Made by a program: the position numbers and the translations under genes
Part shown: positions 1-39,308 of the stretch, piece by piece
How the letters are laid out: every line of letters starts with the position of its first letter
How positions within the stretch are numbered: position 1 is the first letter of the stretch
The notes under the pieces: model-generated
Seen by the model: the letters and a program-made list of their open reading frames with translations, nothing else
What the model was told of the DNA's origin: nothing
Database searches by the model: none
Origin: a virus
Taxonomy: Duplodnaviria > Heunggongvirae > Uroviricota > Caudoviricetes
Reading direction: 5' to 3' (one strand)
Length of the DNA stretch: 39,308 bases
IMG/VR virus record: IMGVR_UViG_2703718775_000026

Positions 1-321
1 TCACACTTCCTCTATAAATTCAGGTTCAGTTTGCGGGTAGAAATAACGGTACTGATAATGAATCTGTGCACGGGCTTCTTCCGGGCTGTTGAATTCCCCT
101 ACGCCATACCAACCGAACAGCGCAGCTCCTGCGACGGTCGTTTCGGCATCGTCGAGAACTTTTACCGGAATATCAAGCATATTGGCTTTAATCTGATTCC
201 ACAATGTGTTGCGACTTCCTCCACCGACTAACAATAATTCAGAGGCCTTAAAGTGCCCGATTTTTTCCAGCATCTGTAGATTGCGCTGTAATTGCGCAGT
301 TAACCCTTCCAGCGCCGCGCG
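1..321 (-). pseudogene. fucK: 3' fragment of FGGY-family carbohydrate kinase gene (L-fuculokinase-like), 5' part separated by prophage insertion
   Basis: Minus-strand translation ends ...[55 protein letters not shown]...EFIEEV with stop at 1-3. The [10 protein letters not shown]...W.QI.A motif is the FGGY kinase C-terminal signature. 112 aa is far too short for a ~480 aa kinase, and the Met at 337-339 appears to be created by phage-end sequence. Confidence 0.6.
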
Positions 322-500
322 TGTAACCAGGTGAATCATTTGATACCAACGAGGGTTTTAGTGAAAGGAGGTGAAATCACCTGTAAGATACTGAAATAAA
401 ACAGGTGATGTCTGGATGAGCGCTTAAAGTCTATTTGATACCGATTGTGCAATAATTAATCGTTTATTCTAAAATCGGCAAAACTTTTGATACTGCGATC
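322..500 (+). repeat. Prophage left-end region (attL-like) with repeated TTTGATAC and TGAAA motifs, candidate transposase-binding sites
   Basis: TTTGATACC at about 339-347 and 434-442, TTTGATACT at about 486-494; GTGAATCA, GTGAAAGG, GTGAAATCAC and CTGAAATA between 331 and 400. Terminal TGTA resembles the Mu end TGTATTGATTCAC. Confidence 0.5.
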
Positions 501-571: not shown

Positions 572-1102
572 CTAACCCGCTTTAGATTCTACCGGATTTG
601 ATTGCCTACTTGTCTCGGTTTTTTCCAAAATCTCTCTGACGCAATCGTCTGGCATATCTACAATCATCAACGCAGCCAGGCGCTTCCTGCCTTCTAGTTG
701 TAATAAATCCTGGTTTTCTTTATCCAGCAGTGTCAGAACCGTCTCTACACCTTTGCGAGCAAGGAGATTGGTTAACTGTTCTCGTTCGTCTTTCGTAAGG
801 AATGAAAGCATCTGTGTAAGTTGATCTCCCTTATCACCAGAACAACCAAAATTACCACAAATACCAACATCGTTTGGTGATTCACCCTTGCCCTCTTTAA
901 GCCACTCAAGACTAACTCCTTCACTTTCAGAAATTCGTATAAGGATACTTTCTCTGGGGGCTGGTTGTGTTTGTCCTCCCTTGAAATAGCTGTTTAATGT
1001 GTTGATATTGATTCCCCACGCTCTGGCAGCTGCACTTCTTGAAGGGTAGCGCTTTGTAAGCATTCCAATACGTTCAATAATAGGTTCTTTTCCCTGCGAC
1101 AT
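572..1102 (-). CDS. c: Mu c-like lysogeny repressor
   Basis: Minus-strand ORF divergent from ner/A/B. HTH-like segment SRSAAARAWGININTLNSYFKGG and LLALM-type C-terminal region. Probable start is the Met of MSQGKEPIIERIG (cat at 1100-1102) with AAGAGG 8 nt upstream; the six-frame ORF extends to 1177. Confidence 0.7.
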   Translation of the reverse strand: MSQGKEPIIERIGMLTKRYPSRSAAARAWGININTLNSYFKGGQTQPAPRESILIRISESEGVSLEWLKEGKGESPNDVGICGNFGCSGDKGDQLTQMLSFLTKDEREQLTNLLARKGVETVLTLLDKENQDLLQLEGRKRLAALMIVDMPDDCVREILEKTETSRQSNPVESKAG

Positions 1103-1177
1103 AAAGATACCTCTTGGTGCTTTTCTAAGGAAAGGTTTCTTTCTATTTATCCAATTGAAAAATAAGGATAAAAGCAA

Positions 1178-5129: not shown

Positions 5130-5411
5130 GTGAAAAAAAATCTCATTGCATGGGCGTGGTCGAGTGGTCTTATTGAGTTTGGTTACGTCCTGCCGGAAGG
5201 TGCATTGCCGATAGTTGCCGGAAAGCCTGCCACGGTACGGCATGTGATTGAGGTTATGGCGCGTCATGGACGTGATGAACAGGAGCAGTTACTGGTTCCG
5301 GGGATACCGGAAGCGGTGACGGAGGAAGAAGCCTTTAATGCCATGATTCGGTTCTGCCGTGAGGTCAGACGCCGGGTCAGTTATCCAAACAGAACGAGGA
5401 CCAGAGGATGA
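5130..5411 (+). CDS. Hypothetical early protein (GTG start)
   Basis: 93 aa; GTG start with GGGAGGTG upstream. Confidence 0.45.
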   Translation: MKKNLIAWAWSSGLIEFGYVLPEGALPIVAGKPATVRHVIEVMARHGRDEQEQLLVPGIPEAVTEEEAFNAMIRFCREVRRRVSYPNRTRTRG

Positions 5412-5989: not shown

Positions 5990-6520
5990 ATGGCAAAACG
6001 CGTTACAAAATTAAAGGCCGCAGCAGAGGCGGCACCGCAGACCCGTGAAGAGGTCAGCCGCGATATCCGCACCCTGGGCGATATTCAGCGAGAGGCGCTG
6101 CGCCTGGAAACAGCGATGAATGATGAAGTGGCAGAAATCACCGCCCGTTATACGCCGCAGATTGAAAACCTTAAAAAAGAAATCAAAGTGCTTTTTAAGG
6201 GGATTCAGGACTGGTGCAAAACCAACCGTGATGAGCTGACGAACGGCGGCAAAACCAAAACTGCCAATCTGACCACCGGAACGGTGTCATGGCGACTGGG
6301 GAATCCATCATGCAGCGTCAGTCGTGATGTGGAAGGTGTGATTGAAATGCTGCGCCGTATGGGCCTTGAGCGTTTTATCCGCACGAAAGAGGAAGTGAAC
6401 AAGGAAGCGGTCCTGGCGGAGCCGGATGCGGTGAAAGGGATTGCCGGTATTAAGGTGAATAAAGGCGCTGAAAGTTTTTATGTCGAGCCTTTTGAACAGG
6501 ACGCCGGACTGAATAAATAA
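5990..6520 (+). CDS. gam: Gam-like host-nuclease inhibitor (DNA end-binding protein)
   Basis: 176 aa (Mu Gam 174 aa). Close match to remembered Mu Gam: ...GDLQREA.RLET.MND..AEIT..., ...WC..NRDELTNGGK.KTANL.TG.VSWR..., ...RFIRTK.E.NKEA.L.EP.AV.G.AGI.V... Confidence 0.85.
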   Translation: MAKRVTKLKAAAEAAPQTREEVSRDIRTLGDIQREALRLETAMNDEVAEITARYTPQIENLKKEIKVLFKGIQDWCKTNRDELTNGGKTKTANLTTGTVSWRLGNPSCSVSRDVEGVIEMLRRMGLERFIRTKEEVNKEAVLAEPDAVKGIAGIKVNKGAESFYVEPFEQDAGLNK

Positions 6521-6617: not shown

Positions 6618-7160
6618 ATGGCATATTTTTATTTCAAATTAGACCGTGTGCAGACAAATAAATATTTCACCAAATATCAACAGACTGTTTTACCGCTACG
6701 CAACAGTATTCTTCGGGCATTACTGAAAAATACAGGCGCTGCCGGATTGCGCTTAAAGCCGTTTGCCATGGACGTAATCAGTGAGTTTTATTTTTCTGGT
6801 GCTCTGCCTGCGGGCTGGCGTAAGCGCGATGATGCGGCTTTTATCGGGGACGGACCGTGCTTTATTGCCAGACCTGATGAGTCATGCCCTGAAGGACCGG
6901 CGATTGCCGCAATGATTGAAGCCGCTGAACGCGAGTTAAGAAAGCGTCCTGATTTCCTTGTCTGGCTCTGTGAAAAGCTGGGGGTAATGAGAATCCCCTC
7001 CATGTTTAACACGGACTCCTGGTGGACCCCGTCGCTCTCCCGTGATGCCCTGTGCGTGGTGTTTAAAGTAGGCGCTTATGGCAGGGAAATAAAAGGGTGT
7101 ATTCCTGAAGAATGCCAGGAAATTAAACATTCTGAATATGTGGCGCTGACGGAGGAATAA
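6618..7160 (+). CDS. Hypothetical early protein
   Basis: 180 aa; AAGGAACAGG RBS. Confidence 0.45.
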   Translation: MAYFYFKLDRVQTNKYFTKYQQTVLPLRNSILRALLKNTGAAGLRLKPFAMDVISEFYFSGALPAGWRKRDDAAFIGDGPCFIARPDESCPEGPAIAAMIEAAERELRKRPDFLVWLCEKLGVMRIPSMFNTDSWWTPSLSRDALCVVFKVGAYGREIKGCIPEECQEIKHSEYVALTEE

Positions 7161-7163
7161 TTC

Positions 7164-7697
7164 ATGATTGATGCAAAAGTGCTTGAAGGGGTTAAAAACT
7201 GGCTGAGTATTTACGGGCGTCTGACCTGCGGCATTCTGGCTGAAAAAATGAATATGCCGCCATCCTCGATGGTTTATTTTCTGCGTGATGCGGTCGATGC
7301 CGGGGTGCTGACGGAATGTAACGGTTTTTATGATATTCCGCGTCCCCGCCCGGTGCAGCCGGTTCGTCGCAAATGCAGCCAGGAAGGTGCGGCTGATGAT
7401 GTTCAGTGGTGCAGCTTCAGAAAGTCCCTGCCGTGGATTGAGGGGCATGATATTCCGTCGATGGCGTGGGAATTTGCTCAGGGCGTACTGACCTGCGAAA
7501 CCGTTTATGTGGTGGCTGAAGTTGATGAGCAGGCCATGAAAGAAGGCGTGCCCCAGTTTGTGATGGCGTATATCGACATTCGCCTGGGTGTCATTATCTG
7601 CGGTTTAAGCGGCTGGAATATCACCGAACATGTTCTGCGTTACCTGATTGTTGACCGGACGGCTGCGCCTGCCGGGATATCTGCGGAGGTGGCGTAA
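7164..7697 (+). CDS. Hypothetical early protein with winged-helix-like N-terminus
   Basis: 177 aa; GGAGGA RBS; N-terminal segment LTCGILAEKMNMPPSSMVYFLRDAVDAGVL looks wHTH-like. Confidence 0.45.
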   Translation: MIDAKVLEGVKNWLSIYGRLTCGILAEKMNMPPSSMVYFLRDAVDAGVLTECNGFYDIPRPRPVQPVRRKCSQEGAADDVQWCSFRKSLPWIEGHDIPSMAWEFAQGVLTCETVYVVAEVDEQAMKEGVPQFVMAYIDIRLGVIICGLSGWNITEHVLRYLIVDRTAAPAGISAEVA

Positions 7698-8215: not shown

Positions 8216-8767
8216 ATGATGATTTTACAACCCATGGGGCGAAAAGGCCGTGCACCCGCTCATGTCCGTGCGTGGACACCTGAAGAAGATGCACTGCTGA
8301 TTGCGCTTTATCCATCCACCCCGGTTAAGGATATTGCTGTCAGGGTAAAAAGAAGTTTCTGGGGTGTACATAACCGGATTGTTTTATTACGCGGTACTTA
8401 CCCGGAGTTGCTCAAATGCAAACGTCCAAGATTTAAACATGATGAAGATAAATTTATCCGAAAAAATGCCAGAACGATGACCGGTAAGCAAATAGGAGAA
8501 TATCTGGGGCGAGACCGGGATTCTGTCCACAAACGGGCGCGATATATTGGCGTAAGCATGAAAAAATACGGAGAGTTGCTGCCCTTCACCCGTATACCTG
8601 ATGATGATGTTCATCTTATTCGTGAATTACGGGATGCTGAATCACCACGACGTCTTACCTTCCGGGAAATAGGCGAGAAATTTGAATTATCCGAGAGTAC
8701 GGTGAATTTTATTTATCACCATCGCCGGACTGCCGAAGATGTTGTATTACGGGAGTTAATGCCATGA
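8216..8767 (+). CDS. Hypothetical protein with three tandem HTH-like repeats
   Basis: 183 aa; three ~40-aa repeats (WTPEEDALLIALY...VHNRIVLL; HDEDKFIRKNARTMTGKQIGEYLGRDRDSVHKRARYIG; DDDVHLIRELRDAESPRRLTFREIGEKFELSESTVNFI). Confidence 0.5.
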   Translation: MMILQPMGRKGRAPAHVRAWTPEEDALLIALYPSTPVKDIAVRVKRSFWGVHNRIVLLRGTYPELLKCKRPRFKHDEDKFIRKNARTMTGKQIGEYLGRDRDSVHKRARYIGVSMKKYGELLPFTRIPDDDVHLIRELRDAESPRRLTFREIGEKFELSESTVNFIYHHRRTAEDVVLRELMP

Positions 8768-9075
8768 TAACGACATTATTTGTTGAATCAGACGAGCCTC
8801 TGGTATGTGCCGCCGGAATGTCGGTTTGTGGCGGAACGCTGACCGGTGTTTATTTCGGGGATTTGCGCGGTTATCCCTGGCATTCACTGGATGACGCATT
8901 TCCGCCTGATATGGAGGCTGTCGTGCTGATTGTTCAGTATGGTGACCAACAGGAACTGCGCATCGGCCATATGGGGTATGAAGGCTTTTTTATTGATGAA
9001 GAAACCGGAGCCTGCCTTGAAGATGAGGACGGACAGGTGACGCACTGGTGCCATATTTCAGCTTTACCGGAATGA
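8764..9075 (+). CDS. Hypothetical early protein
   Basis: 103 aa; ATGA start/stop overlap with the upstream gene. Confidence 0.45.
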   Translation: MITTLFVESDEPLVCAAGMSVCGGTLTGVYFGDLRGYPWHSLDDAFPPDMEAVVLIVQYGDQQELRIGHMGYEGFFIDEETGACLEDEDGQVTHWCHISALPE

Positions 9076-9440
9076 CGGGAGGTGAGTGCGTGAGAAGTTA
9101 TATTGATAATGAAAAACTGAAGACAATCAGCGACTGTCTTAGCTTGCTGGCAAAAATAAAAGAAACCATTGAAGAGATTAAATTTCAGCTTGAATACGAA
9201 CCCTGTGGCGATGATACATGGCGTAACTCTGCCAGAAAAGCACTGGCTGTCTTTCAGAAACAACGCCGGACTGTTGAATACCGCCTTGCTGTATTGCGCC
9301 AGGAGGAAAAGGAAAGAAATATAAGACGTCATGAACTCGTTAATGATTTTCTTGTTCGTGAATTAAAGGAGCGTGTGCCGGAGTCGGTATTTTTTGAGTG
9401 TGAGGCTGTTGCCCGTAGCAAAGCACTGGAAACTGATTAA
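9072..9440 (+). CDS. Hypothetical early protein
   Basis: ORF 9048-9440; the ATG at 9072 overlaps the upstream stop (ATGA) and is preceded by GGA; predicted coiled-coil rich in K/E. Confidence 0.4.
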   Translation: MTGGECVRSYIDNEKLKTISDCLSLLAKIKETIEEIKFQLEYEPCGDDTWRNSARKALAVFQKQRRTVEYRLAVLRQEEKERNIRRHELVNDFLVRELKERVPESVFFECEAVARSKALETD

Positions 9441-9452
9441 ACAGGCAGGTGA

Positions 9453-9788
9453 ATGATGAGTATTGAATTAAGATCGTCTTATGAATATCGTAAAATTCTC
9501 ATCGCCGGAGGCATGAAACCGGAAGATGCAGAAAAAATCGTTTCTTTTATGGATAAAGAATGTGACAAACGGGATATGCCAGAAATTATTATGGATGACA
9601 TGATTCTGCATTCAGCCGTAGCGTTAAGCCCGTTATGGATTGTGCATTCTCTTGCTGAAATTGCCAAAGGCACCGATAAACAGGCAGCTGTTGCTGCCCT
9701 TCAGACGCTTAATGAAATGCGTATATCTCCACGCCCGACATTAATACATATGATTCTGTCCAGCATGGAGGATAAAGCAAATGAATAG
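9453..9788 (+). CDS. Hypothetical early protein
   Basis: 111 aa; AGGTG RBS. Confidence 0.45.
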   Translation: MMSIELRSSYEYRKILIAGGMKPEDAEKIVSFMDKECDKRDMPEIIMDDMILHSAVALSPLWIVHSLAEIAKGTDKQAAVAALQTLNEMRISPRPTLIHMILSSMEDKANE

Positions 9789-9978
9789 TCTACCCGCTGG
9801 ATGGGCGCGGCCACTAATGGCCAGGAAGCATCATTTTTTTAAAACAGGCGAAAATATCAGTATATGTGGACGGTGGTTATATCTGGCTCATAATCGCGAG
9901 CCGGATACATTTGAAAGCCCTGATGACTGTGCCGAATGCCGCAGAAGAGTGAATAAGGAGAAAGATAATGGACAATAG
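9781..9978 (+). CDS. Hypothetical small Cys-containing protein
   Basis: 65 aa; start overlaps the upstream stop; contains C...CAEC. Confidence 0.4.
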   Translation: MNSLPAGWARPLMARKHHFFKTGENISICGRWLYLAHNREPDTFESPDDCAECRRRVNKEKDNGQ

Positions 9979-10264
9979 TTCTCTGTTGTTCTGGTGCTTA
10001 TATATCACATCCTTTTTCGGCGCATTTGTTATTACCCGGTGGTTATGTCGAAAAATCATCTGCTTTTTTGATAAAAGACATCCGGTTGAACGGGCGGCTG
10101 ATGCGCTCATTCAGCAGGCCATTGTGTTATATAGCGGTGAATTTTTCTGCCGGATAACAACCAGAGATGGCTGGCACATAATGATTATTCCACCAACACA
10201 CCATGCCCGGTGGGATGAGGCAGAAAAGGCTTTCCATGTCCGTAAAAAGGTAAATACGGTATGA
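9968..10264 (+). CDS. Hypothetical small membrane protein
   Basis: 98 aa; N-terminal hydrophobic segment LLFWCLYITSFFGAFVITRWL; overlapping start. Confidence 0.45.
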   Translation: MDNSSLLFWCLYITSFFGAFVITRWLCRKIICFFDKRHPVERAADALIQQAIVLYSGEFFCRITTRDGWHIMIIPPTHHARWDEAEKAFHVRKKVNTV

Positions 10265-10770
10265 GAGGAAAACTGATATCCGCCATTCATGTGGCAAAGC
10301 GCGAGCTTGCCCTGGATGATGAGACTTATACATCCGCGCTGCTGGCAGCCACCGGCAAAACCAGCTGCCGGGATATGTCACCGGATGAGTTATCCCGCGT
10401 GCTGGATGTTTTCAAAAAACGCGGTTTTAAAGTGCGTCAGAACCCGGTTAACCGGGCCTTAAAACCGGGTACGGTGACCGCCAAAATTCGCGCCATCTGG
10501 AAGGTGATGCACCGGCAGGGCTTTATCACCGATGGTGCGGAAACCGCCCTTAACCGCTGGGTGAAATCGCAGACGGCCGCGCAGAACGGCGGCGAAGGTG
10601 TGGCAAACTGGCAGTGGCTGGAGCAACACCCCGCCCTGGCCTCAGATGTGCTGGAGCGTCTCAAGCGATGGCACCGCCGCAAAATGCTGGCCGCGATGGG
10701 AATGCCCGAACGCACGCTGATGGGGTATGACGCCGTTTGCAGGCAGTATGAAAAATCACTTCCCCGTTAA
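10261..10770 (+). CDS. gemA: GemA-like protein (Mu gp16 family)
   Basis: 169 aa; N-terminus ...LISAIHVAKRELALDDETYTSALLAATGKTSCRDMSPDELSRVLDVFKKRGFK matches the remembered Mu gp16/GemA pattern; position just before Mor/C. Confidence 0.65.
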   Translation: MRGKLISAIHVAKRELALDDETYTSALLAATGKTSCRDMSPDELSRVLDVFKKRGFKVRQNPVNRALKPGTVTAKIRAIWKVMHRQGFITDGAETALNRWVKSQTAAQNGGEGVANWQWLEQHPALASDVLERLKRWHRRKMLAAMGMPERTLMGYDAVCRQYEKSLPR

Positions 10771-10774
10771 CTCC

Positions 10775-10806
10775 AAATCCCGCCACAACGCGGGATTTTT
10801 ATTTTA
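10775..10806 (+). terminator. Rho-independent terminator after gemA
   Basis: 9-bp stem AAATCCCGC / GCGGGATTT with 6-nt loop, followed by TTATTTTAAAC. Confidence 0.65.
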
Positions 10807-10839
10807 AACTTACCGGGAACGCGAGAACCGGAGGCTGAT

Positions 10840-11265
10840 ATGGCAGAAACTCAGATGAGCATGTTTGGTGGTGACAGTGAGCAACTGCACGCCCTTATCG
10901 ACCGCCTTGATGACATCCCTGATGATGTTCTCAAAAAGAACTGGCCGCGGACCCTGTCAGAACTGGTTGAAGTCACCGGCGCAGAACTTCAGCGTCAGGG
11001 GATTGAGCCGGTACTGGCCGGTAAACTGGCACGCAAGGTGGCTGCGGCTCAGGCAGCCTATATGGGCGGACGGGGTTATTACCTGCCGGTCGGGGAATCT
11101 CTCTTTGCCGAGCTGCGAAACAATGAGATATTTTCGCGCTGGGACCGGGGCGAGAAAATTGAATCCCTTCGCCGCCATTACCGGATGTCAGAAACCCAGA
11201 TTTATACCGTCATACGTGAACAGCGCCGTCTGCATCTGGCAAGAACGCAACCGCCACTTTTCTGA
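10840..11265 (+). CDS. Mor/C-family transcriptional activator (single copy)
   Basis: 141 aa; C-terminal region GGRGYYLPVGESLF...IFSRWD...YRMSETQIYTVIREQRR aligns with Mu Mor GGGQVYIPRGQAL...IWNDF...YGVTFNTVYKAIRRMRR; lies between gemA and lys. Confidence 0.7.
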   Translation: MAETQMSMFGGDSEQLHALIDRLDDIPDDVLKKNWPRTLSELVEVTGAELQRQGIEPVLAGKLARKVAAAQAAYMGGRGYYLPVGESLFAELRNNEIFSRWDRGEKIESLRRHYRMSETQIYTVIREQRRLHLARTQPPLF

Positions 11266-11336
11266 TATTCCGCAAAGCCTGCCGCCTTTCCTTCACCGTT
11301 ACGCTGACTCAGAGAACATCATGAGACAGCGTAACA

Positions 11337-11837
11337 ATGCCAAAACTCCCCGCACCACTGCGTAAAAAGCTGATTGCCCTTGTTCTGGCCGGTGCCGGGA
11401 CGTTCACGATTGCCACGCATTACACCGGTTACTGGGAAGGGAAAGAAAACTCCACGTATATCGATCCCACCGGTACACCCACCATCTGTTACGGCCATAC
11501 CGGCCCGGATGTGAAACCGGGTATGACCCTGACGGATGAAGAATGCCTGGAACTACTGGAAAAGGACATGAAATGGGCCTTTGCGGCCATTGATCGGCGT
11601 GTTCAGGTGCCGCTTACCCGTGGTCAGACTGTGGCGCTGGCTTCGTGGATCTTCTGGGCCGGTGAAACGAACTTCCGCAACTCCACGCTTCTGCGCCTGA
11701 TCAATGCCGGGCAGATGCCCGCGTCCTGTAAGCAGTATATCCGCTGGATTTATTCAAAGGGGGTGAAACTCCCCGGCCTTGAGGCCCGCCGTTCGGCGGA
11801 TGAATGGTTATGTCGCTACGACTTGCCGAACGTCTGA
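11337..11837 (+). CDS. lys: Phage lysozyme (T4-type endolysin), probable SAR endolysin
   Basis: 166 aa; catalytic-region motif E..ENSTYIDPTGTPTICYGHTG; N-terminal weakly hydrophobic Gly/Ala-rich segment KKLIALVLAGAGTFTIATHY. Confidence 0.75.
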   Translation: MPKLPAPLRKKLIALVLAGAGTFTIATHYTGYWEGKENSTYIDPTGTPTICYGHTGPDVKPGMTLTDEECLELLEKDMKWAFAAIDRRVQVPLTRGQTVALASWIFWAGETNFRNSTLLRLINAGQMPASCKQYIRWIYSKGVKLPGLEARRSADEWLCRYDLPNV

Positions 11838-11910
11838 ACCGCTTCTGGCGACCGCTCATGATAGCGCTGCTGTGTGCGGTACTGCTGTTACGGGGTGTCC
11901 TGTGGCTGCG

Positions 11911-12300
11911 GTGAATAATGCCTTACCGGCCCTGATTGCCGGGGCGTGCATGGCGGCGCTGGGGATTATCGCTGTACTGGTTGCCGCGATATGGGGAATG
12001 CACCAGAAGACGCAGCGCCTTGAAGACAATAATCAGGTGCTTGTGCGTGAGCGGGATGAGGCGCGTCAGGTGCTGGCAAATCAGCAGCACACCCTGCAAC
12101 TCATTTCACAAATCAGTGAGGCGGCCACGAATGAAAAACAACAGAACATTCAGCACAGCGAGGGACAGCAGAGCGTTGTCCGCCGGTCGCTGGCAGCGGT
12201 GCCTGCGGCCTCTGCCCCTGTTCCTGATGATGTGGCTGATCGGGTGCGCCGGGCCGTCTGTGAAATACGTGCCTGTGAAGCCGGTGCCGATCCCCGCTGA
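11911..12300 (+). CDS. Rz-like i-spanin (start uncertain)
   Basis: N-terminal TM LPALIAGACMAALGIIAVLVAAIW followed by a charged coiled-coil; candidate starts are GTG 11911 and ATG 11950, or upstream within ORF 11779-12300. Confidence 0.5.
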   Translation: MNNALPALIAGACMAALGIIAVLVAAIWGMHQKTQRLEDNNQVLVRERDEARQVLANQQHTLQLISQISEAATNEKQQNIQHSEGQQSVVRRSLAAVPAASAPVPDDVADRVRRAVCEIRACEAGADPR

Positions 12301-12502
12301 ATGGCTGGCTGACTGCCTGGTCCCTCCTGTGCCGGAGCCGTTCACGTTTGGGGCATCGGTCACTTACAACCTGCAACTGCTGGCGGTGATCAAGAACTGC
12401 AACGTGGACAAGGCCAGTATTCGTCGTCTGGAGGCGCGGCGACAACATGAATTTACTGATATGGCCGGAACGCCTGCTGTTCCGGCAGGAAAGACGAAGT
12501 AA
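12131..12502 (+). CDS. Rz1-like o-spanin lipoprotein, +1 frame overlapping the i-spanin
   Basis: Lipobox LIGC followed by a proline-rich mature region (CAGPSVKYVPVKPVPIPAEW...). Frame is +1 relative to the i-spanin and extends past its stop. The start could be ATG 12131 or TTG about 12176. Confidence 0.5.
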   Translation: MKNNRTFSTARDSRALSAGRWQRCLRPLPLFLMMWLIGCAGPSVKYVPVKPVPIPAEWLADCLVPPVPEPFTFGASVTYNLQLLAVIKNCNVDKASIRRLEARRQHEFTDMAGTPAVPAGKTK

Positions 12503-12512
12503 GGAAAAAGGT

Positions 12513-12740
12513 ATGGATGATTCAGATCGTGCTCAGGCTGTGATGGAGCGGGGATCAGAACGCGCCCTTTGTAACCGGCTGACACGTAAGCGCCGGGCAA
12601 TGGATGCTCCGGGCAGACGTGTCTGCGCGGACTGTGGCGGAGAGATCCCCGCCGCACGTCTTGTTGCTGTGCCGGATGCCATCCGTTGTGTGAACTGCCA
12701 GAACATCATGGAGGCCCGTCATGTGGGTCAGCATCGTTAA
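12513..12740 (+). CDS. TraR/DksA-family C4 zinc-finger protein
   Basis: ATG at 12513 with AGGAAAAAGG RBS inside ORF 12447-12740; CADCGGEIPAARLVAVPDAIRCVNC fits C-x2-C-x17-C-x2-C. Confidence 0.6.
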   Translation: MDDSDRAQAVMERGSERALCNRLTRKRRAMDAPGRRVCADCGGEIPAARLVAVPDAIRCVNCQNIMEARHVGQHR

Positions 12741-13032
12741 AGATTATGTTGTGCCGATCCTTTCGGCGACGGCAACCGCTGGCGGGATATTCATGGCGCT
12801 GATGCGCAAAACGTTTGTCCCCCGCGAGGCCTTTGAAAAACTCTCCGACCGCGTTGAGAAGGTGGAAACCCGCCTGTCGTCACTGCCGACAGAAGCTGAG
12901 GTCAACCGTCTGAATGTGGAAATCGTGACCCTGCGGGGTGAACTGAAAACCACGAACGCCACGCTCCGCTCTGTCTCCTATCAGAACGAACTGCTGCTGG
13001 AGCAGGCGGTAAGGAAAAAAACGAATGAGTGA
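12721..13032 (+). CDS. Small membrane protein with periplasmic coiled-coil (releasin-like position in lysis cluster)
   Basis: 103 aa; N-terminal TM VVPILSATATAGGIFMALM followed by a coiled-coil. Confidence 0.45.
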   Translation: MWVSIVKDYVVPILSATATAGGIFMALMRKTFVPREAFEKLSDRVEKVETRLSSLPTEAEVNRLNVEIVTLRGELKTTNATLRSVSYQNELLLEQAVRKKTNE

Positions 13033-19062: not shown

Positions 19063-19238
19063 TTGTTTAAGGTATGCAAATGCATTACCTTACCCCCTTC
19101 AGGCGCGTGTCGTGATTTTCTAACCTGTATTTAACGGGCTTTAAAATCTGCGTGAAGCGCCTTTGTATTTTTCCCCTGGAAGCACTTCCTGAAATCCCGC
19201 AAAACCCGCCCTGAAAATTCCCGGCCTATGCTGCCGGA

Positions 19239-27492: not shown

Positions 27493-28828
27493 CGGTCGTG
27501 GTGCGTTCCGTGGTGTGCCGTTCCTCGTCTGGCGTGAGCAGCGCGAACGTGGCGGGCGAAACATTGTCCGTCGGGAATATCCGTTACGGGAAACCGGTGG
27601 TGCAGACGATCTGGGACCTAAACTGGCTGAATTTACGTTCAGTGTACTTGTGATGGGGGATGATGTTCAGACACAGCGAAATCGTCTGCGTGATGCCCTT
27701 CGTGCACCCGGTGCCGGGGAGCTGCTTCACCCGGATTACGGCACGTTAAATGTGCTGATAAACAGCTTTGAAAGTCGTTATAACGCTGCTGAACAGGGCG
27801 TGGTTGAGTTCACCATTAATGTCACGCCGGTAAGTGATGATACCGCACCTGCTGTCACACAGGACACGGCCGCCATTCTGGAGCAGAAGAGTACCACCGC
27901 GCTCGGGAAGGTTTTTGAAACCCTGGAAGCGGGCTGGACGGTGATTTCTGACGGAATGCACGATGTCCAGGCAATGACCGAAACCATCAGCGATAAGGTG
28001 TCCGCCCTGGAAAATGCCGTTTCCGGCATGGGGATTGTACAGGATATCAGTGCCTTTACTGCCACGTTCACGGCGCTGAAAGGGAATGCCACGGCATTAC
28101 TGACAGCACCTTCCCGCATGGCCTCATCTTTTGCGGGGCTTTTCAGTGCCCTGATCACCCTGCCATCGCTGCCGTCACTGTCTTCAGGAGGCCTGAATAC
28201 CCGGCCCGGTGGCAGTATCGGCCGGACGACATCCGCCGTCTCTCAGGGAATGCCGCAACTGTACAGGACATTATCTTCCCTGCGTTACGTGCTGGATGAG
28301 CAGGATAATCCGCAGACTCTCATCGGTCTGACACCGGCAGCACAAAAGAATATTCGTCTGATACGGGCGGTAATGCAGAGTGCTGCCGTGGTGGCCCAGG
28401 CACAGACCGTGGGAAAACTGCTGGATCAGGTTCTCAGTCAGGAAACCCTGCCGGACAGTGACGCAGCCCACCGTACCTGGCCTGTCTGGCTGGAAAGTTC
28501 AGTTGATCTTCAGCGCATTAACCGTGACTTAAGCGAAGCGCTCGAACGGCAGGTGATGACACTGTCCGGGCAGGGGTATACCGCCACGGCGCTGACGCTT
28601 CGTGATGCCAGACTGGCACTGACAGAGGATCTGAATACACGGGGAGTTCAGCTACCCGGTGCAACAGTAGTGACTGTACGTACCACCGAGCCTGCACTGG
28701 TGACCCTGTACCGTGCCACCGGGAACAGTACCGGCTGGCAACGTTTTGTGCGCCGTAACGGTATTGTTGATCCGCTGTTCATTCCCGGAGGCCATTCAGT
28801 GGAGGTGATTAGTGAGCAGCAGGGTTGA
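27479..28828 (+). CDS. Mu N-like (gp43, DNA circularization protein family) tail protein
   Basis: ATG at 27479 overlaps the tape-measure end; about 450 aa; position. Confidence 0.55.
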   Translation: MASGDGRGAFRGVPFLVWREQRERGGRNIVRREYPLRETGGADDLGPKLAEFTFSVLVMGDDVQTQRNRLRDALRAPGAGELLHPDYGTLNVLINSFESRYNAAEQGVVEFTINVTPVSDDTAPAVTQDTAAILEQKSTTALGKVFETLEAGWTVISDGMHDVQAMTETISDKVSALENAVSGMGIVQDISAFTATFTALKGNATALLTAPSRMASSFAGLFSALITLPSLPSLSSGGLNTRPGGSIGRTTSAVSQGMPQLYRTLSSLRYVLDEQDNPQTLIGLTPAAQKNIRLIRAVMQSAAVVAQAQTVGKLLDQVLSQETLPDSDAAHRTWPVWLESSVDLQRINRDLSEALERQVMTLSGQGYTATALTLRDARLALTEDLNTRGVQLPGATVVTVRTTEPALVTLYRATGNSTGWQRFVRRNGIVDPLFIPGGHSVEVISEQQG

Positions 28829-34574: not shown

Positions 34575-35135
34575 ATGCTGATTGGCTATATACGCGTATC
34601 AACAAATGACCAGAACACCGGTTTACAAAGAAATGCGCTGGAATGTGCAGGATGTGAGCAGATTTTTGAAGACAAAATGAGTGGTAAAACGACACAGCGG
34701 CCGGGACTGAAGCGGGCACTGAAGAAACTAAAACCCGGTGACACACTGATGGTCTGGAAACTGGACAGGCTGGGGCGCAGTATGCGCCACCTTGTTGCGC
34801 TGACAGATGAATTACAGCAACAGGGGATAAATTTTCGTAGTCTTACTGACAACATTGATACGTCAACCCCCATGGGGCGCTTCTTTTTTCACATAATGGG
34901 TGCGCTGGCAGAAATGGAGCGTGAATTAATTGTCGAACGGACACGGGCTGGTCTTGCAGCTGCCCGTGAAAGGGGACGAACCGGCGGCAGACCCCGTCGT
35001 CTCACGCAGGAACAATACGAGCAGGTCGGGCGTTTACTGGCCGGGGGTGTCAGTCGAAGACAGGTGGCACTTATTTTTGATATCGGCCTTTCAACCCTTT
35101 ATCGTTATTATCCTGCGAGCGTTTCGGAAAAATAA
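34575..35135 (+). CDS. gin: Gin/Pin/Hin-family serine DNA invertase
   Basis: 186 aa; MLIGYIRVSTNDQNTGLQRNALECAGCEQIFEDK... is nearly identical in pattern to Mu Gin; catalytic-Ser motif RVSTNDQ; C-terminal HTH. Confidence 0.9.
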   Translation: MLIGYIRVSTNDQNTGLQRNALECAGCEQIFEDKMSGKTTQRPGLKRALKKLKPGDTLMVWKLDRLGRSMRHLVALTDELQQQGINFRSLTDNIDTSTPMGRFFFHIMGALAEMERELIVERTRAGLAAARERGRTGGRPRRLTQEQYEQVGRLLAGGVSRRQVALIFDIGLSTLYRYYPASVSEK

Positions 35136-35225: not shown

Positions 35226-37283
35226 ATGAATATTATGACGTCCAAATGGGTTCAACTATCATCAATGCCCGGAAACTTTACCGTTAAAGTTTCCGGTGGT
35301 ACAGCGGCATTTCTTGAGGCTCCCTTTCCTCCTGCTGAAACGAAAGGAGGAATGACATTTGCTGACTGTCTCATCAGTTTTAATACACAGGATTGCCTGT
35401 GGGTAAGGCCAGTATCCGGTGATCCGAACGTGGAAATTACCGGAGCGGGTATTGGTGCTGTCATTCCGTTAAGTGCTGATGTTGCCGGTACTACTGAACC
35501 GTCAGACTGGGATAATGCAGAAACACATACCCGTCCGGCAGGAAATGAAACGGCTTCCAGCTCCCCTTCCTGGTATTACGTGATTGTTATAGCCGGCCAG
35601 TCCAATGCTTCATCTTATGGTGAAGGGTTGCCCCTTCCGGATTCTTATGATCGTCCTGATCCACGTATTATGCAGCTGGCACGCAGGAATACACAAACCC
35701 CCGGAGGTATTCCCTGCAAATACAATGAAATCATTCCAGCAGATCACTGCCTTCATGATGTTCAGAATATGAGTCTGCTGAACCATCCAAAAGCAGACCT
35801 GAAAAAAGGGCAGTATGGTTGTGTGGGGCAGGGACTTCATATTGCGAAAAAAGTATTACCGGTGATTCCTGCTGATGCCGGGATTTTACTGGTTCCCTGT
35901 GCCCGTGGCGGCTCTGCTTTTACAACCGGCGCAGTTGGCTCATTCGATCCGGCAAGTGGTGCAGCCGAGGCGTCACTACGCTGGGGAGTGGATACCCCAC
36001 TGTATCAGGATCTTGTCAGTCGAACTAAAGCGGCACTTGAGGCGAATCCAAAGAATGTGCTGTTATCTGTCGTATGGATTCAGGGGGAAGGAGACCTTAA
36101 AGCGACCCCGGCCCAGCATGGTGCCCAGTTTACTGCGATGGTGAAAAAATTCCGTGCGGATCTTGGTGCTTTCTCCGGTCAGTGTATTGGTGGTTCATCA
36201 GACAGTGTGCCGTGGTTATGTGGTGACACAACCTATGACTGGAAAGAGAAGAACCCAGCGGCATATGAAACCATTTATAGCGGATATAAAAACCGGGCTT
36301 CCGAGAACATTCACTTTGTTCCACTGATGCACGATGAGTTCGGTAATAAAACCGCGACCAACCTGCCGGAGCACGACCCGGATATCGCTTCTGCCGGGTA
36401 TTATGGTGCGGAATCACGGGGAGATGGCAACTGGACAACAGCATCCAGGGCAACCCATTTTAGCTCCTGGGCGCGCCGTTTTCTGGTCTCAGATCGTTTT
36501 GCATCAGCAATTCTTAAATATGCAGGTCTGACCTCTGCATTTATTGCCGGTGTGGCCCCTGATGGTGAAGCCCTGCCTCAGCCCGCGCCGGGTGGGAAAC
36601 CGGAAGCGCCGACAGGTAGTCAGCCAGGAGGCAGTGAGTCCCCCCATCCGACATCCCCGTCACTCCGTACGCTGCTTTCACTTAAAGCATCAGCAGGAGA
36701 AGCCCCGGCTCAGGGCTGGAAAATTACAGATGGTACAATCCAGCTGACGGACGAAGGTAAAGCGTTGACCGTATCCAAACAAAGCGGAAAAACCTGGGCG
36801 CTTACCCATGGAACTGATGCAGCCGGTGAACTTCTGAAGCATGGTGGTCAGTTGACCTGTAAATTCCGTCTGTCAGGTGAAGTAAAAGAAGGCCAGTTTG
36901 CTCTGGGTATTTACCTCCACACCGATACGGTCCCGGAAGGTGTAACCATGAGTGGTACAGGCACACCGTTCCTGATGGCGTATTATCTCCAGACAACAGG
37001 CGGCCAGTTAAATCTGATGCACCATAAAACAGGGGGGAATACGAAACTGGGATCATTTGGAGCCTACAATAACCAGTGGCATACACTTGTCCTGAAGTTT
37101 ACGGCGGGAAGTGCCCAGGTAACGCCTGTGCTGGATGGCACTCCGGGCCAGGCATTCCAGATGGTGAAAGATGCACTTTCCCCTGCCAAAGATACGCTGA
37201 CACTGACAGATGTCACCAAAGGGGCAACTTATGGCGTGTCTTTTGAGAGCGTTGTCCTTGAGGTTAATACCCCTGCGGCATAA
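35226..37283 (+). CDS. SGNH/GDSL-type esterase (sialate/carbohydrate O-acetylesterase-like) with C-terminal lectin-like domain; cargo protein
   Basis: 685 aa. GQSN nucleophile motif (VIVIAGQSNASSYGEG, nt about 35595-35606), WIQGEGD block and later His/Asp candidates; C-terminal ~200 aa with beta-rich, lectin-like composition. Architecture resembles prophage NanS-p-type esterases. Confidence 0.55.
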   Translation: MNIMTSKWVQLSSMPGNFTVKVSGGTAAFLEAPFPPAETKGGMTFADCLISFNTQDCLWVRPVSGDPNVEITGAGIGAVIPLSADVAGTTEPSDWDNAETHTRPAGNETASSSPSWYYVIVIAGQSNASSYGEGLPLPDSYDRPDPRIMQLARRNTQTPGGIPCKYNEIIPADHCLHDVQNMSLLNHPKADLKKGQYGCVGQGLHIAKKVLPVIPADAGILLVPCARGGSAFTTGAVGSFDPASGAAEASLRWGVDTPLYQDLVSRTKAALEANPKNVLLSVVWIQGEGDLKATPAQHGAQFTAMVKKFRADLGAFSGQCIGGSSDSVPWLCGDTTYDWKEKNPAAYETIYSGYKNRASENIHFVPLMHDEFGNKTATNLPEHDPDIASAGYYGAESRGDGNWTTASRATHFSSWARRFLVSDRFASAILKYAGLTSAFIAGVAPDGEALPQPAPGGKPEAPTGSQPGGSESPHPTSPSLRTLLSLKASAGEAPAQGWKITDGTIQLTDEGKALTVSKQSGKTWALTHGTDAAGELLKHGGQLTCKFRLSGEVKEGQFALGIYLHTDTVPEGVTMSGTGTPFLMAYYLQTTGGQLNLMHHKTGGNTKLGSFGAYNNQWHTLVLKFTAGSAQVTPVLDGTPGQAFQMVKDALSPAKDTLTLTDVTKGATYGVSFESVVLEVNTPAA

Positions 37284-38189: not shown

Positions 38190-38416
38190 TACGCGCGATC
38201 CTACCTTCACTGTATAAAAAGTCAATAAAATGATCATTTTATGATCGTTTTCACCACCTAACTCTTCGTTTCTTTAAGTAAATAATCACCGCCCTGAATC
38301 ATTGTTGATGACTTTTAAATCTATTTGTTGTATCAATTAAACAAATCGAATCGATCGTTTTTGTCGATCGATTGCATGAGAAAGGCATCAACAACAAAGC
38401 AGGAGGTTATGCGGCC
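38190..38416 (+). promoter_or_regulatory. Putative mom-operon regulatory region with clustered Dam (GATC) sites
   Basis: Five GATC within about 175 bp (about 38197, 38232, 38243, 38353, 38366), arranged as two repeat pairs: TGATCATTTTATGATCGTTTT and ATCGATCGTTTTTGTCGATCGAT. Confidence 0.5.
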
Positions 38417-38617
38417 ATGTATCGAAACATACGGTGCCGACACTGCAATAAGCTACTGGCACGGGCCAGTTTCAGTTATCTGGAAGTAAAATGTCCGCGC
38501 TGTAAAACCCTCAATCAAATCACATCTCCGAGCGCCACAGAGCACCCCACATACACAAGGAAATCCTGTCGTGGGGAACAGAAAGCAAGTCACATCCCGT
38601 ATCATCAGCACGCCTGA
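38417..38617 (+). CDS. com: Com-like zinc-finger translational activator of mom
   Basis: ATG with AGCAGGAGG RBS; [35 protein letters not shown] resembles Mu Com (...IRCKNCNKLL...IEIRCPRCKR...); overlaps the mom start. Confidence 0.7.
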
Positions 38618-39308
38618 ACTTATTCGCTATAACGACAATATCGTTGGTTATGGCTCCCGTGAGTTGCGGGTTGAGACAATAAGTTGCTGGCTGGCCAGAC
38701 TGGTTATCGTCAATAAACATTACAGCCACCGTTTCGTAAATAATTCCTACCTTCATCTGGGTATATTTTCAGAACGGGAACTTGTTGGCGTAATGCAATG
38801 GGGTTACGCCCTTAACCCAAACAGTGGTGCACGCGTCGTAACGGGTACGCAGAACCGAGAATATATGGAGCTTAACCGGCTATGGATGCATGACTGTATG
38901 CCGAGAAACTCCGAATCAAGGGCAATCAGTTACGCGCTCAAGCTAATCAGGCAGCTTTATCCGCAGGTACAGTGGGTTCAGTCGTTTGCAGATGAGCGTT
39001 GTGGCTGTCTTGGTGTCGTGTATCAGGCAAGCAATTTTGATTATGTAGGCAGCCATGAATCAACATTCTATGAACTTGATGGCGAGTGGTATCACGAGAT
39101 TTGCAGGAGTGCCATTAAACGAGGCGGACAACGAGGTGAACATCTGAGGGCTAATATCGACAGAGCCAGTGTGCATAAGTTCCGACAGTTTCGTTACATC
39201 CGGTTTCTGAACAAGAGGGCCAGAAAACGCCTCAACACAAAGCTATTCAAAGTCCAGCCTTACCCAAAACCACAAACAGTTAAAACTGGTTTGAAAGAGA
39301 GTGAATGA
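38571..39308 (+). CDS. mom: Mom-like DNA modification protein (adenine modification, anti-restriction); start uncertain
   Basis: 245-aa ORF overlapping the com 3' end, stop at window end; position downstream of gin and com as in Mu. Confidence 0.65.

Follow-up and report, generated by a model that had tools for sequence, protein, structure and literature searches.

An examination of a 39,308-nucleotide stretch of viral DNA (IMG/VR record IMGVR_UViG_2703718775_000026, referred to here in its entirety as 'the window') indicated that it contains a Mu-like prophage, with a Mu-like gene order, in which a single gene of the Mor/C family of transcriptional activators (10840-11265, plus strand, 141 residues; Pfam Mor PF08765) follows the last early gene, gemA, and that the short gap between those two genes contains a palindrome (10775-10798) that may be read both in RNA and in DNA. 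In phage Mu, Mor activates the middle promoter Pm, from which C is expressed, and C in turn activates the late promoters. In the reading that we favor, to which we give an even chance, the hairpin in the window is a combined terminator and late-type promoter, which would be primed by transcriptional read-through and would subsequently be activated by the product of the very gene that it precedes. No discussion of an element of this type, in which a terminator and a late-promoter box are placed together before an activator gene, was found in the literature that was searched.

A previous reading of this DNA, made from its sequence only, had reported that no second paralogue of the activator was evident among the early open reading frames (ORFs), and had raised the possibility that one might be found elsewhere in the prophage or in its unseen right end. 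Searches with profile hidden Markov models (HMMs) of the Mor/C family upheld the first of these statements and found nothing to support the second. A Pfam scan of 30 ORFs, corresponding to the early region (except transposase gene A) and to the left and right ends, gave no second Mor-family match among them, and a six-frame search with hmmsearch and phmmer, conducted with filters off on 913 stop-to-stop fragments, returned a sole match at 10771-11262 (E=1.6e-66), with the next best fragments reaching E=2 with the HMM and E=0.17 with phmmer using Mu Mor. As a positive control, an HMM of this kind recovers Mor as well as C from Mu, two proteins that share only 37% identity. The stop codon of mom forms the end of the window, and in a related copy of the prophage in Escherichia coli FORC_044 (100% identical over 10500-11450, although its right-end cargo is different) mom is the last phage gene, with approximately 150 bp separating it from the next host gene; there is therefore no room for a paralogue in an unseen right end.

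The same pattern was observed in 40 related loci (39 from IMG/VR and one from Edwardsiella, with activators 44-100% identical to that of the window), in which the Mor/C profile was run over 10 kb to either side: exactly one family member was found in all 40, and the order was always gemA, activator, lys. While sequence searches reach only so far for small, fast-evolving regulators, and a second paralogue might be too diverged to be recognized or might lie outside the window, we consider it highly improbable that one was missed, given the outcome of the unfiltered search and of its control, the coverage of the window through its last gene, and the single copy in each related locus.

The one family member matches PF08765 with E=2.8e-32 and 111.3 bits (cut-off 24.9), its residues 34-140 aligning with positions 2-107 of the 107 in the profile. 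Over its full length it shares 39% identity with Mu C (105 bits), versus 27% with Mu Mor (51.6 bits), and comparison with the PDB gave E=1.1e-26 for C (9l0x) and E=2.1e-9 for Mor (1rr7). Its stop codon is at 11265, a Plys-like box and -10 element occupy 11264-11305, and lys begins at 11337. Because the protein is closer to Mu C than to Mor, and because its gene is located directly before lys, it is, as judged by sequence and position, an orthologue of C and not of Mor, and Mor is therefore the missing member of the pair.

Proteins of the Mor/C family are about 130-140 residues in length, bind as a dimer or tetramer to a promoter element around -43, and recruit sigma-70 RNA polymerase. An alignment of 28 sequences, including Mu Mor and Mu C, demonstrated that G76, Y81 and P83 are invariant and that G77 and R78 are nearly so, corresponding to a GGR..Y.P linker and core. 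The protein also carries motifs of the clamp-binding type at both of its ends, QMSMF at residues 5-9 and QPPLF at residues 137-141; in the first of these S replaces D/E, as in the general consensus QL[SD]LF. Such motifs, described as Qx[D/E][L/M]F at the N-terminus and QPDLF at the C-terminus, are needed by MuC for late transcription (PMC12867686). Upstream of the gene, a Shine-Dalgarno sequence (GGAGG, 10830-10834, plus strand) is recognizable in the sequence and is conserved in the E. coli sublineages. Elsewhere in the family, a 267-residue representative (P0108) contains two Mor-family stretches and apparently consists of two activator domains fused in tandem.

The palindrome begins four nucleotides past the stop codon of gemA. 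A terminator scan returned it, on the plus strand, as a perfect 9-bp inverted repeat forming the stem-loop of a predicted intrinsic terminator (AAATCCCGC-cacaac-GCGGGATTT), in which nine pairs (five of them G-C) enclose a loop of six nucleotides and are followed by TTATTTT. The T-tract of that terminator (TTTTTATTTT, 10796-10805, plus strand) is invariant in an E. coli sublineage of 83% identity, and includes an alternative candidate -10 element, TATTTT, at 10800-10805. The predicted RNA folding energy of the hairpin is -13.5 kcal/mol, versus -12.2 kcal/mol for the hairpin of the Mu early terminator t9.2. Hairpin and T-tract together have the sequence features of a Rho-independent terminator at the end of an operon, and are predicted to act as one. 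The sequence-only reading had described a strong terminator after gemA, a description with which the hairpin, the T-tract and the identification of GemA (E=3.2e-30) agree, and had placed a 141-residue Mor/C-family gene 33 nucleotides beyond it; the gene, its length and its position were borne out, while the distance from the end of the T-tract (10805) to the ATG (10840) is about 34 nucleotides rather than 33.

The hairpin element was present in 37 of the 41 sequences that were checked (the window and the 40 related loci). The remaining four consist of L032 and L034, which contain a one-base variant of the arm; L033, which ends at a contig edge; and L029, in which insertion of an IS4-type element (8489-10001, encoding a transposase of 445 residues) into the left arm has destroyed the hairpin. 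In several relatives, extra genes are found between gemA and the activator gene, where a copy of the hairpin stands on either side of them (at 2570 and 3290 in L023, at 8835 and 9480 in L030, and at 9377 and 9930 in L044/L045).

The late promoters of Mu have a -10 element and an upstream box with AAnnCC(C) at about -38 to -32, and lack a -35 element (PMC2582627); an alignment of the four late promoters annotated in Mu, anchored at the -10 elements, gave the box as xATAAyCCCs at about -41 to -32. In the window, a 20-bp box (GAWATYCCGCAAARCCYGCC) precedes both lys and the protease gene, at an equal distance from a -10 element in each case, and this 20-mer pattern is matched twice in the window, versus 0.01 matches expected. 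The first corresponds to a predicted Plys-type late promoter (11264-11305, plus strand), with the box GATATTCCGCAAAGCCTGCC at 11264-11283 and a -10 element, TACGCT, at 11300-11305; it is conserved in the sublineage, and its -10 and start region is similar to that of Mu Plys (TAGACTGCCATCAGAGAA versus TACGCTGACTCAGAGAA). The second corresponds to a predicted PI-type late promoter upstream of the protease gene (19191-19232, plus strand), with the box GAAATCCCGCAAAACCCGCC at 19191-19210 and TATGCT at 19227-19232. A probable PP-type late promoter, with the box AAACCCTGCC and the -10 element CACCGT, is found inside gene N (28443-28474, plus strand), approximately 350 bp before the end of that gene, which matches the position of PP in Mu.

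The promoter-proximal half of the box, AAANCCYGCC, is located 26 bp upstream of the -10 element at Plys, at PI and at the PP-like site, and has eight matches in the window, all on the plus strand, versus 1.1 expected. Besides the promoter boxes, exact plus-strand matches were noted at 5222, 14091, 25474 and 33867; the last is found in the invertible tail-fibre segment, with CATCTT 26 bp further on, and the other three are intragenic and without a convincing -10 element. The complete boxes of Plys and PI (11264-11283 and 19191-19210) each consist of two adjacent direct 9-bp repeats, AWATYCCGC followed by AAARCCYGC.

One of the eight matches is the left arm of the hairpin itself (AAATCCCGCC, 10775-10784, plus strand), which fits AAANCCYGCC exactly, is identical as a 9-mer to the core of the PI box (19192-19200), and shares AATCCCGC with Mu Plys, which is C-dependent, in the region of its C site. 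In lineages with activators only 44-60% identical to that of the window, the arm sequence (A)AATCCCGC is kept and the loops and flanks have diverged. The two arms read AAATCCCGcC...CGGGATTT in L041, AAAAATCCCGC...GCGGGATTTTT in L043, AAAATCCCGC...GCGGGATTTT in L045, AAAATCCCGCC...GGCGGGATTTT in L046 and CCCATCCCGC...GCGGGATGGG in L039, and in the last of these the palindrome is retained without any T-run. In L032 and L034, the arm reads AAACCCCGC, a variant in which one pair of the stem is broken and the box consensus is still matched. The stem of a terminator may drift in sequence so long as its pairing persists; since the stem would otherwise be free to vary, the conservation of the arm sequence, and not only of its pairing, argues for a sequence-specific constraint. 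This comparison across lineages is the strongest evidence for a late-promoter box in the hairpin, an element that, like the orthology of the gene to C, goes beyond what the sequence-only reading had described. Pasteurella phage Pmp9 was considered as an additional test lineage and was uninformative: its gap is an A/T-rich 130 bp, with a TATAAT and no comparable hairpin or box in register.

In four lineages, the hairpin is accompanied by a recognizable -10 element. In L041, L043, L045 and L046, TATACT or the consensus TATAAT (the latter in L043 and L046) directly follows the hairpin, in a register that places the left arm at -40 to -32 and its CCC at -36 to -34, as in Mu PP and within 1 bp of the register of each lineage's own Plys; the distance from the box to the -10 element is 26-28 bp, compared with 26 bp at the late promoters. 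A scan of Mu and of five relatives of the window, six loci in all, for AATCCC-N20-22-TAnnnT returned 12 matches in 108 kb, versus 1.7 expected and a maximum of six in 200 shuffles. All except one of those 12 were on the plus strand, at two places only, directly upstream of the activator gene or directly upstream of lys, and they included Mu Plys, which has been established experimentally as C-dependent. In relatives with inserts between gemA and the activator gene, the -10 element is retained where it precedes plus-strand genes (in L045, at both copies of the hairpin), and is lost where it faces an insert on the minus strand (L023 and L030).

In the window, the candidate -10 element for the activator gene is TAAACT (10805-10810, plus strand), a putative assignment that rests on its correspondence to the TATACT or TATAAT of those four lineages; TACC comes next both after TAAACT in the window and after TATACT in L045. 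The E. coli sublineages, which are 83% identical overall, both keep CCAAATCCCGCCACA[A/G]CGCGGGATTTTTATTTTAAACTT, a single loop base apart, then diverge over approximately 16 bp past TAAACT, and are conserved again at the Shine-Dalgarno sequence. Transcription directed by TAAACT would produce a leader of approximately 23 nucleotides, versus 24-25 nucleotides at Mu Pm, at Mu Plys and at the Plys of the window. Two other arrangements were rejected. One, in which the hairpin would be centered at -43.5 in the manner of the Mu sites, needs the TGTAAT that is found 20-25 nucleotides past the hairpin in the 83% sublineage, would start the mRNA at the Shine-Dalgarno sequence, and fails in the window, from which that hexamer is missing; the other, a leftward promoter from the right arm, has no -10 element by eye.

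According to the mechanism that these observations suggest, the early transcript from Pe would stop after gemA at the intrinsic terminator, and a small initial dose of the activator would be provided either by read-through of that terminator or by basal activity of the promoter. The activator would then bind the box in the hairpin DNA and drive its own gene, producing positive feedback, and would also switch on Plys, PI and probably PP; its clamp-binding motifs may, in addition, couple the timing of the switch to replication and further delay it. The efficiency of termination, the use of the promoter and self-activation are features of this scheme that we infer from the sequence.

Several observations weigh against it. 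In the window itself AATCCC is 29 bp from TAAACT and 24 bp from TATTTT, whereas the spacing is 26 bp at the late promoters and 26-28 bp in the relatives, and the hexamer at the canonical position reads TTTAAA; a promoter for the activator gene in the window is plausible, albeit not in perfect register. A T-tract that is followed by A/T-rich sequence often mimics a -10 element by chance, the conservation of the arm could partly reflect a slow evolution of paired stems, and the lineages that were compared are few and incompletely independent. In addition, L040, L042 and L048 carry a different sequence upstream of the activator gene, such that the element is not obligatory, and the region upstream of com and mom in the window contains no recognizable late box (neither AAANCCYGCC nor AATCCC in register).

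These points might be taken to indicate that the hairpin is just a terminator, that read-through by itself delivers a low and delayed dose of the activator, that the 69-bp gap contains no promoter, that the activator does not switch on its own gene, and that the likeness of the arm to the late box is a matter of ancestry or chance. Such an arrangement, which we consider rather unlikely, would be in keeping with the canonical hairpin and U-tract directly after gemA, with a consensus scan that calls no sigma-70 promoter in 10771-10839, with a spacing between box and -10 element that is off by about 2 bp in the window, and with the shortness of the gap and its conserved Shine-Dalgarno sequence. 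It does not account for an arm sequence that is conserved, beyond its pairing, across very diverged lineages, for a palindrome that persists in L039 in the absence of a T-run, for the exact match of the arm to the late box, and for the presence of TATAAT or TATACT in the register of a C box in four lineages, all of which argue for the combined terminator and promoter.

The sequence-only reading had offered a simplified cascade with one activator, control by read-through of the terminator, or a non-homologous replacement for one of the two paralogues; the evidence agrees with a cascade of one activator in which the terminator participates in control, and gives no support to a replacement. A candidate for a factor acting in Mor's place, other than a host factor, would be the ORF at 8216-8767, which is weakly similar to helix-turn-helix and sigma-70 region 4-like models, at E values of about 1e-4 to 1e-3 that fall short of the Pfam cut-offs, and a homologue of which is named SANT/Myb-like DNA-binding in RefSeq. 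However, outside the E. coli sublineage, homologues of this ORF were found in L046 alone, and are absent from the single-activator lineages L039, L041, L043, L045 and L009, and Mu itself, despite having Mor, carries a weak relative of it. As a general substitute for Mor it was therefore rejected. The other early ORFs displayed no regulator signature in Pfam scans, and the conserved element upstream of the activator gene bears the box of the activator itself and not some other motif; overall, we regard an early regulator unrelated to Mor, or a host factor in its place, as improbable.

The presence of two paralogues, which the sequence-only reading had taken as its baseline, proved not to be the baseline state of these phages. 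While two family members were found in all 23 Mu-type loci (retrieved with Mu Mor, at 87-99% identity), the clade of the window has one throughout. A tblastn survey of 50,697 phage records, using a family member that detects both Mu paralogues, identified 89 places in 75 records; among the records listed, two places were found only in Mu, D108, SfMu and their close relatives, including the Yersinia vB_YpM phages, and one place was found in the listed Mu-like phages of Pasteurella, Shewanella, Klebsiella, Burkholderia (BcepMu and phiE255), Pseudomonas (B3/D3112-like), Vibrio, Pseudoalteromonas and Ralstonia. A single activator is thus the common state of Mu-like phages outside Mu's own genus, and the succession of Mor and then C appears to be the exception, even though the early, middle and late cascade of Mu serves as the textbook model for transposable phages. 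The literature on these phages likewise counts 'the late regulator Mor/C' as one core gene (PMC8705779).

The breadth of that distribution was taken from the tblastn survey; of the broader searches for related loci, two gave alignments that were too diverse, a profile scan of genome contigs gave only one locus, and single-protein scans with P0104, P0119 and P0160 found nothing. A separate observation concerns L072, a metagenomic viral contig that is distant from Mu (46% identity to Mor) and contains two Mor-family genes (6980-7324 and 9220-9651) approximately 2 kb apart; arrangements with two activators may therefore have had more than one origin.

The E. coli prophage in the window, which is part of a widespread clade of Mu-like phages, interrupts fucK, with the left flank (1-339, minus strand) encoding the last 99 residues (367-465) of L-fuculokinase. 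Its genes comprise a repressor (572-1177, minus strand), ner, the transposase gene A, B, a series of small early ORFs, gam (5990-6520), a gp11-like ORF, and gemA (10261-10770, plus strand; Pfam GemA PF06252), the last gene of the early operon. These are followed by the Mor/C-family ORF, by lys (11337-11837, plus strand; an endolysin and the first late gene, Pfam Phage_lysozyme, E=6.3e-37), by the head and tail genes, by an invertase (34575-35135) and, at the right edge, by com and mom (38417-39308, plus strand; Zn_ribbon_Com, E=2e-12, and Mom PF25680, E=8.5e-77). Rfam and tRNA scans of the window gave no match. The segment from 9000 to 13000 is 98.9% identical to an annotated 'Mu-like phage' that is inserted in an Stx2c phage, and the segment that spans gemA, the activator gene and lys was found in 231 of 5,426 complete E. 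coli genomes, including several O157:H7 chromosomes at 99.7% identity. On the strength of such similarity, the prophage is probably of the Sp18 type, Sp18 being the Mu-like element of E. coli O157:H7 Sakai, where it has been judged to be intact (PMC2669165). Insertion sites vary, with other copies found elsewhere in the chromosome (for example, near ndh in FORC_044).

The cargo at the right end also varies among copies of the prophage. In LC727881 (L004, 1350-2400), a 98%-related Mu-like phage in an Stx2c phage, the same com is followed by an ORF similar to C5-cytosine methyltransferases in place of mom, and a comparison with the window corresponds to a swap of DNA-modification cargo behind a common com and upstream region. 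That upstream region (38238-38416) contains a cluster of GATC sites, as in the regulatory region of mom in Mu. Between the invertase and the right-end genes, an ORF of 685 residues (35226-37283) encodes a SASA-type carbohydrate esterase domain together with DUF6645, and may be involved in the modification or degradation of surface polysaccharide. Within the lysis and late cluster is a TraR/DksA-type zinc-finger gene (12447-12740; TIGR02419, E=1.4e-21), homologues of which were found in all single-activator lineages tested and were not found in Mu between 1 and 13 kb; proteins of this type bind RNA polymerase, and its product could be a modulator of late transcription.

By itself, a single activator that is an ordinary member of a known family would be of little interest, to which the conserved combination of a terminator and a late box adds some. 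If the hairpin merely corresponds to a leaky terminator, the finding is an ordinary one. If it does combine terminator and promoter, it would represent a simple and testable mechanism by which one activator might produce a delayed, all-or-none switch, would provide a plausible origin both for the overlap of Pm and t9.2 in Mu and for Mor, and would bear on a prophage that about 4% of complete E. coli genomes carry, those of O157:H7 among them, and whose copies transpose into Stx phages. A broader proposal, which we advance tentatively and as something short of probable, is that the palindrome plays a double role, acting in RNA as the early terminator and in DNA as the binding site of the activator, and that a self-amplifying switch of one protein is thereby formed. 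The relay of Mu might then have been derived from such a circuit, through the acquisition of a duplicate, mor, upstream of the terminator and a shift in the specificity of the promoter to the new paralogue, such that positive feedback was converted into a cascade of two steps.

Comparison with Mu illustrates both how similar the two systems are and where they depart from one another. The activator resembles Mu C (gp21) in its Pfam family, its length (141 versus 140 residues), its position directly upstream of lys and its possession of clamp-binding-type motifs at both ends, and the late promoters of both phages have a -10 element and an upstream box and lack a -35 element. The boxes themselves differ, in that those of the window contain a tandem pair (AWATYCCGC and AAARCCYGC), whereas those of Mu correspond to an inverted dyad, TTAT-N5-6-ATAA. 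In Mu the order is gemA and mor (which overlap), t9.2/Pm, gp18-20, C, a terminator, Plys and lys; C is transcribed from Pm under the control of Mor, approximately 800 bp past the early terminator and behind gp18-20, and a terminator is located between C and Plys. The window, in contrast, is without mor and gp18-20, its C gene directly follows the early terminator, and no terminator precedes Plys.

The closest parallel to the element itself is t9.2/Pm. The Mor site of Mu (-51 to -36, with +1 at 9224) reads AGTAAAGCCGGTTAAT and takes up the left arm of the t9.2 hairpin together with its loop; that assignment of +1 agrees with the published positions -57G and -54A (PMC4390567; PMC4287176). In both phages a hairpin of similar strength directly follows the last early gene and overlaps a binding site (a candidate box in the case of the window) for a Mor/C-family activator of the next transcription unit. 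In Mu, however, the site corresponds to the left arm and loop, the -10 element is 15 bp past the hairpin, and the activator is Mor, a separate protein encoded upstream, whereas in the window the box corresponds to the left arm, the candidate -10 element abuts the hairpin, and the only family member available is the gene's own product. Finally, the genomes of the B3/D3112-like Pseudomonas phages, BcepMu, phiE255, Vibrio martha 12B12, Shewanella MuM16-1 and Klebsiella Kp4866-3 each encode a single family member, which in most cases neighbors gemA. The last early gene of MuM16-1 and of Kp4866-3 is the activator gene itself, whose ORF overlaps the end of gemA, with no terminator between the two, whereas in the clade of the window a conserved hairpin is found between them.

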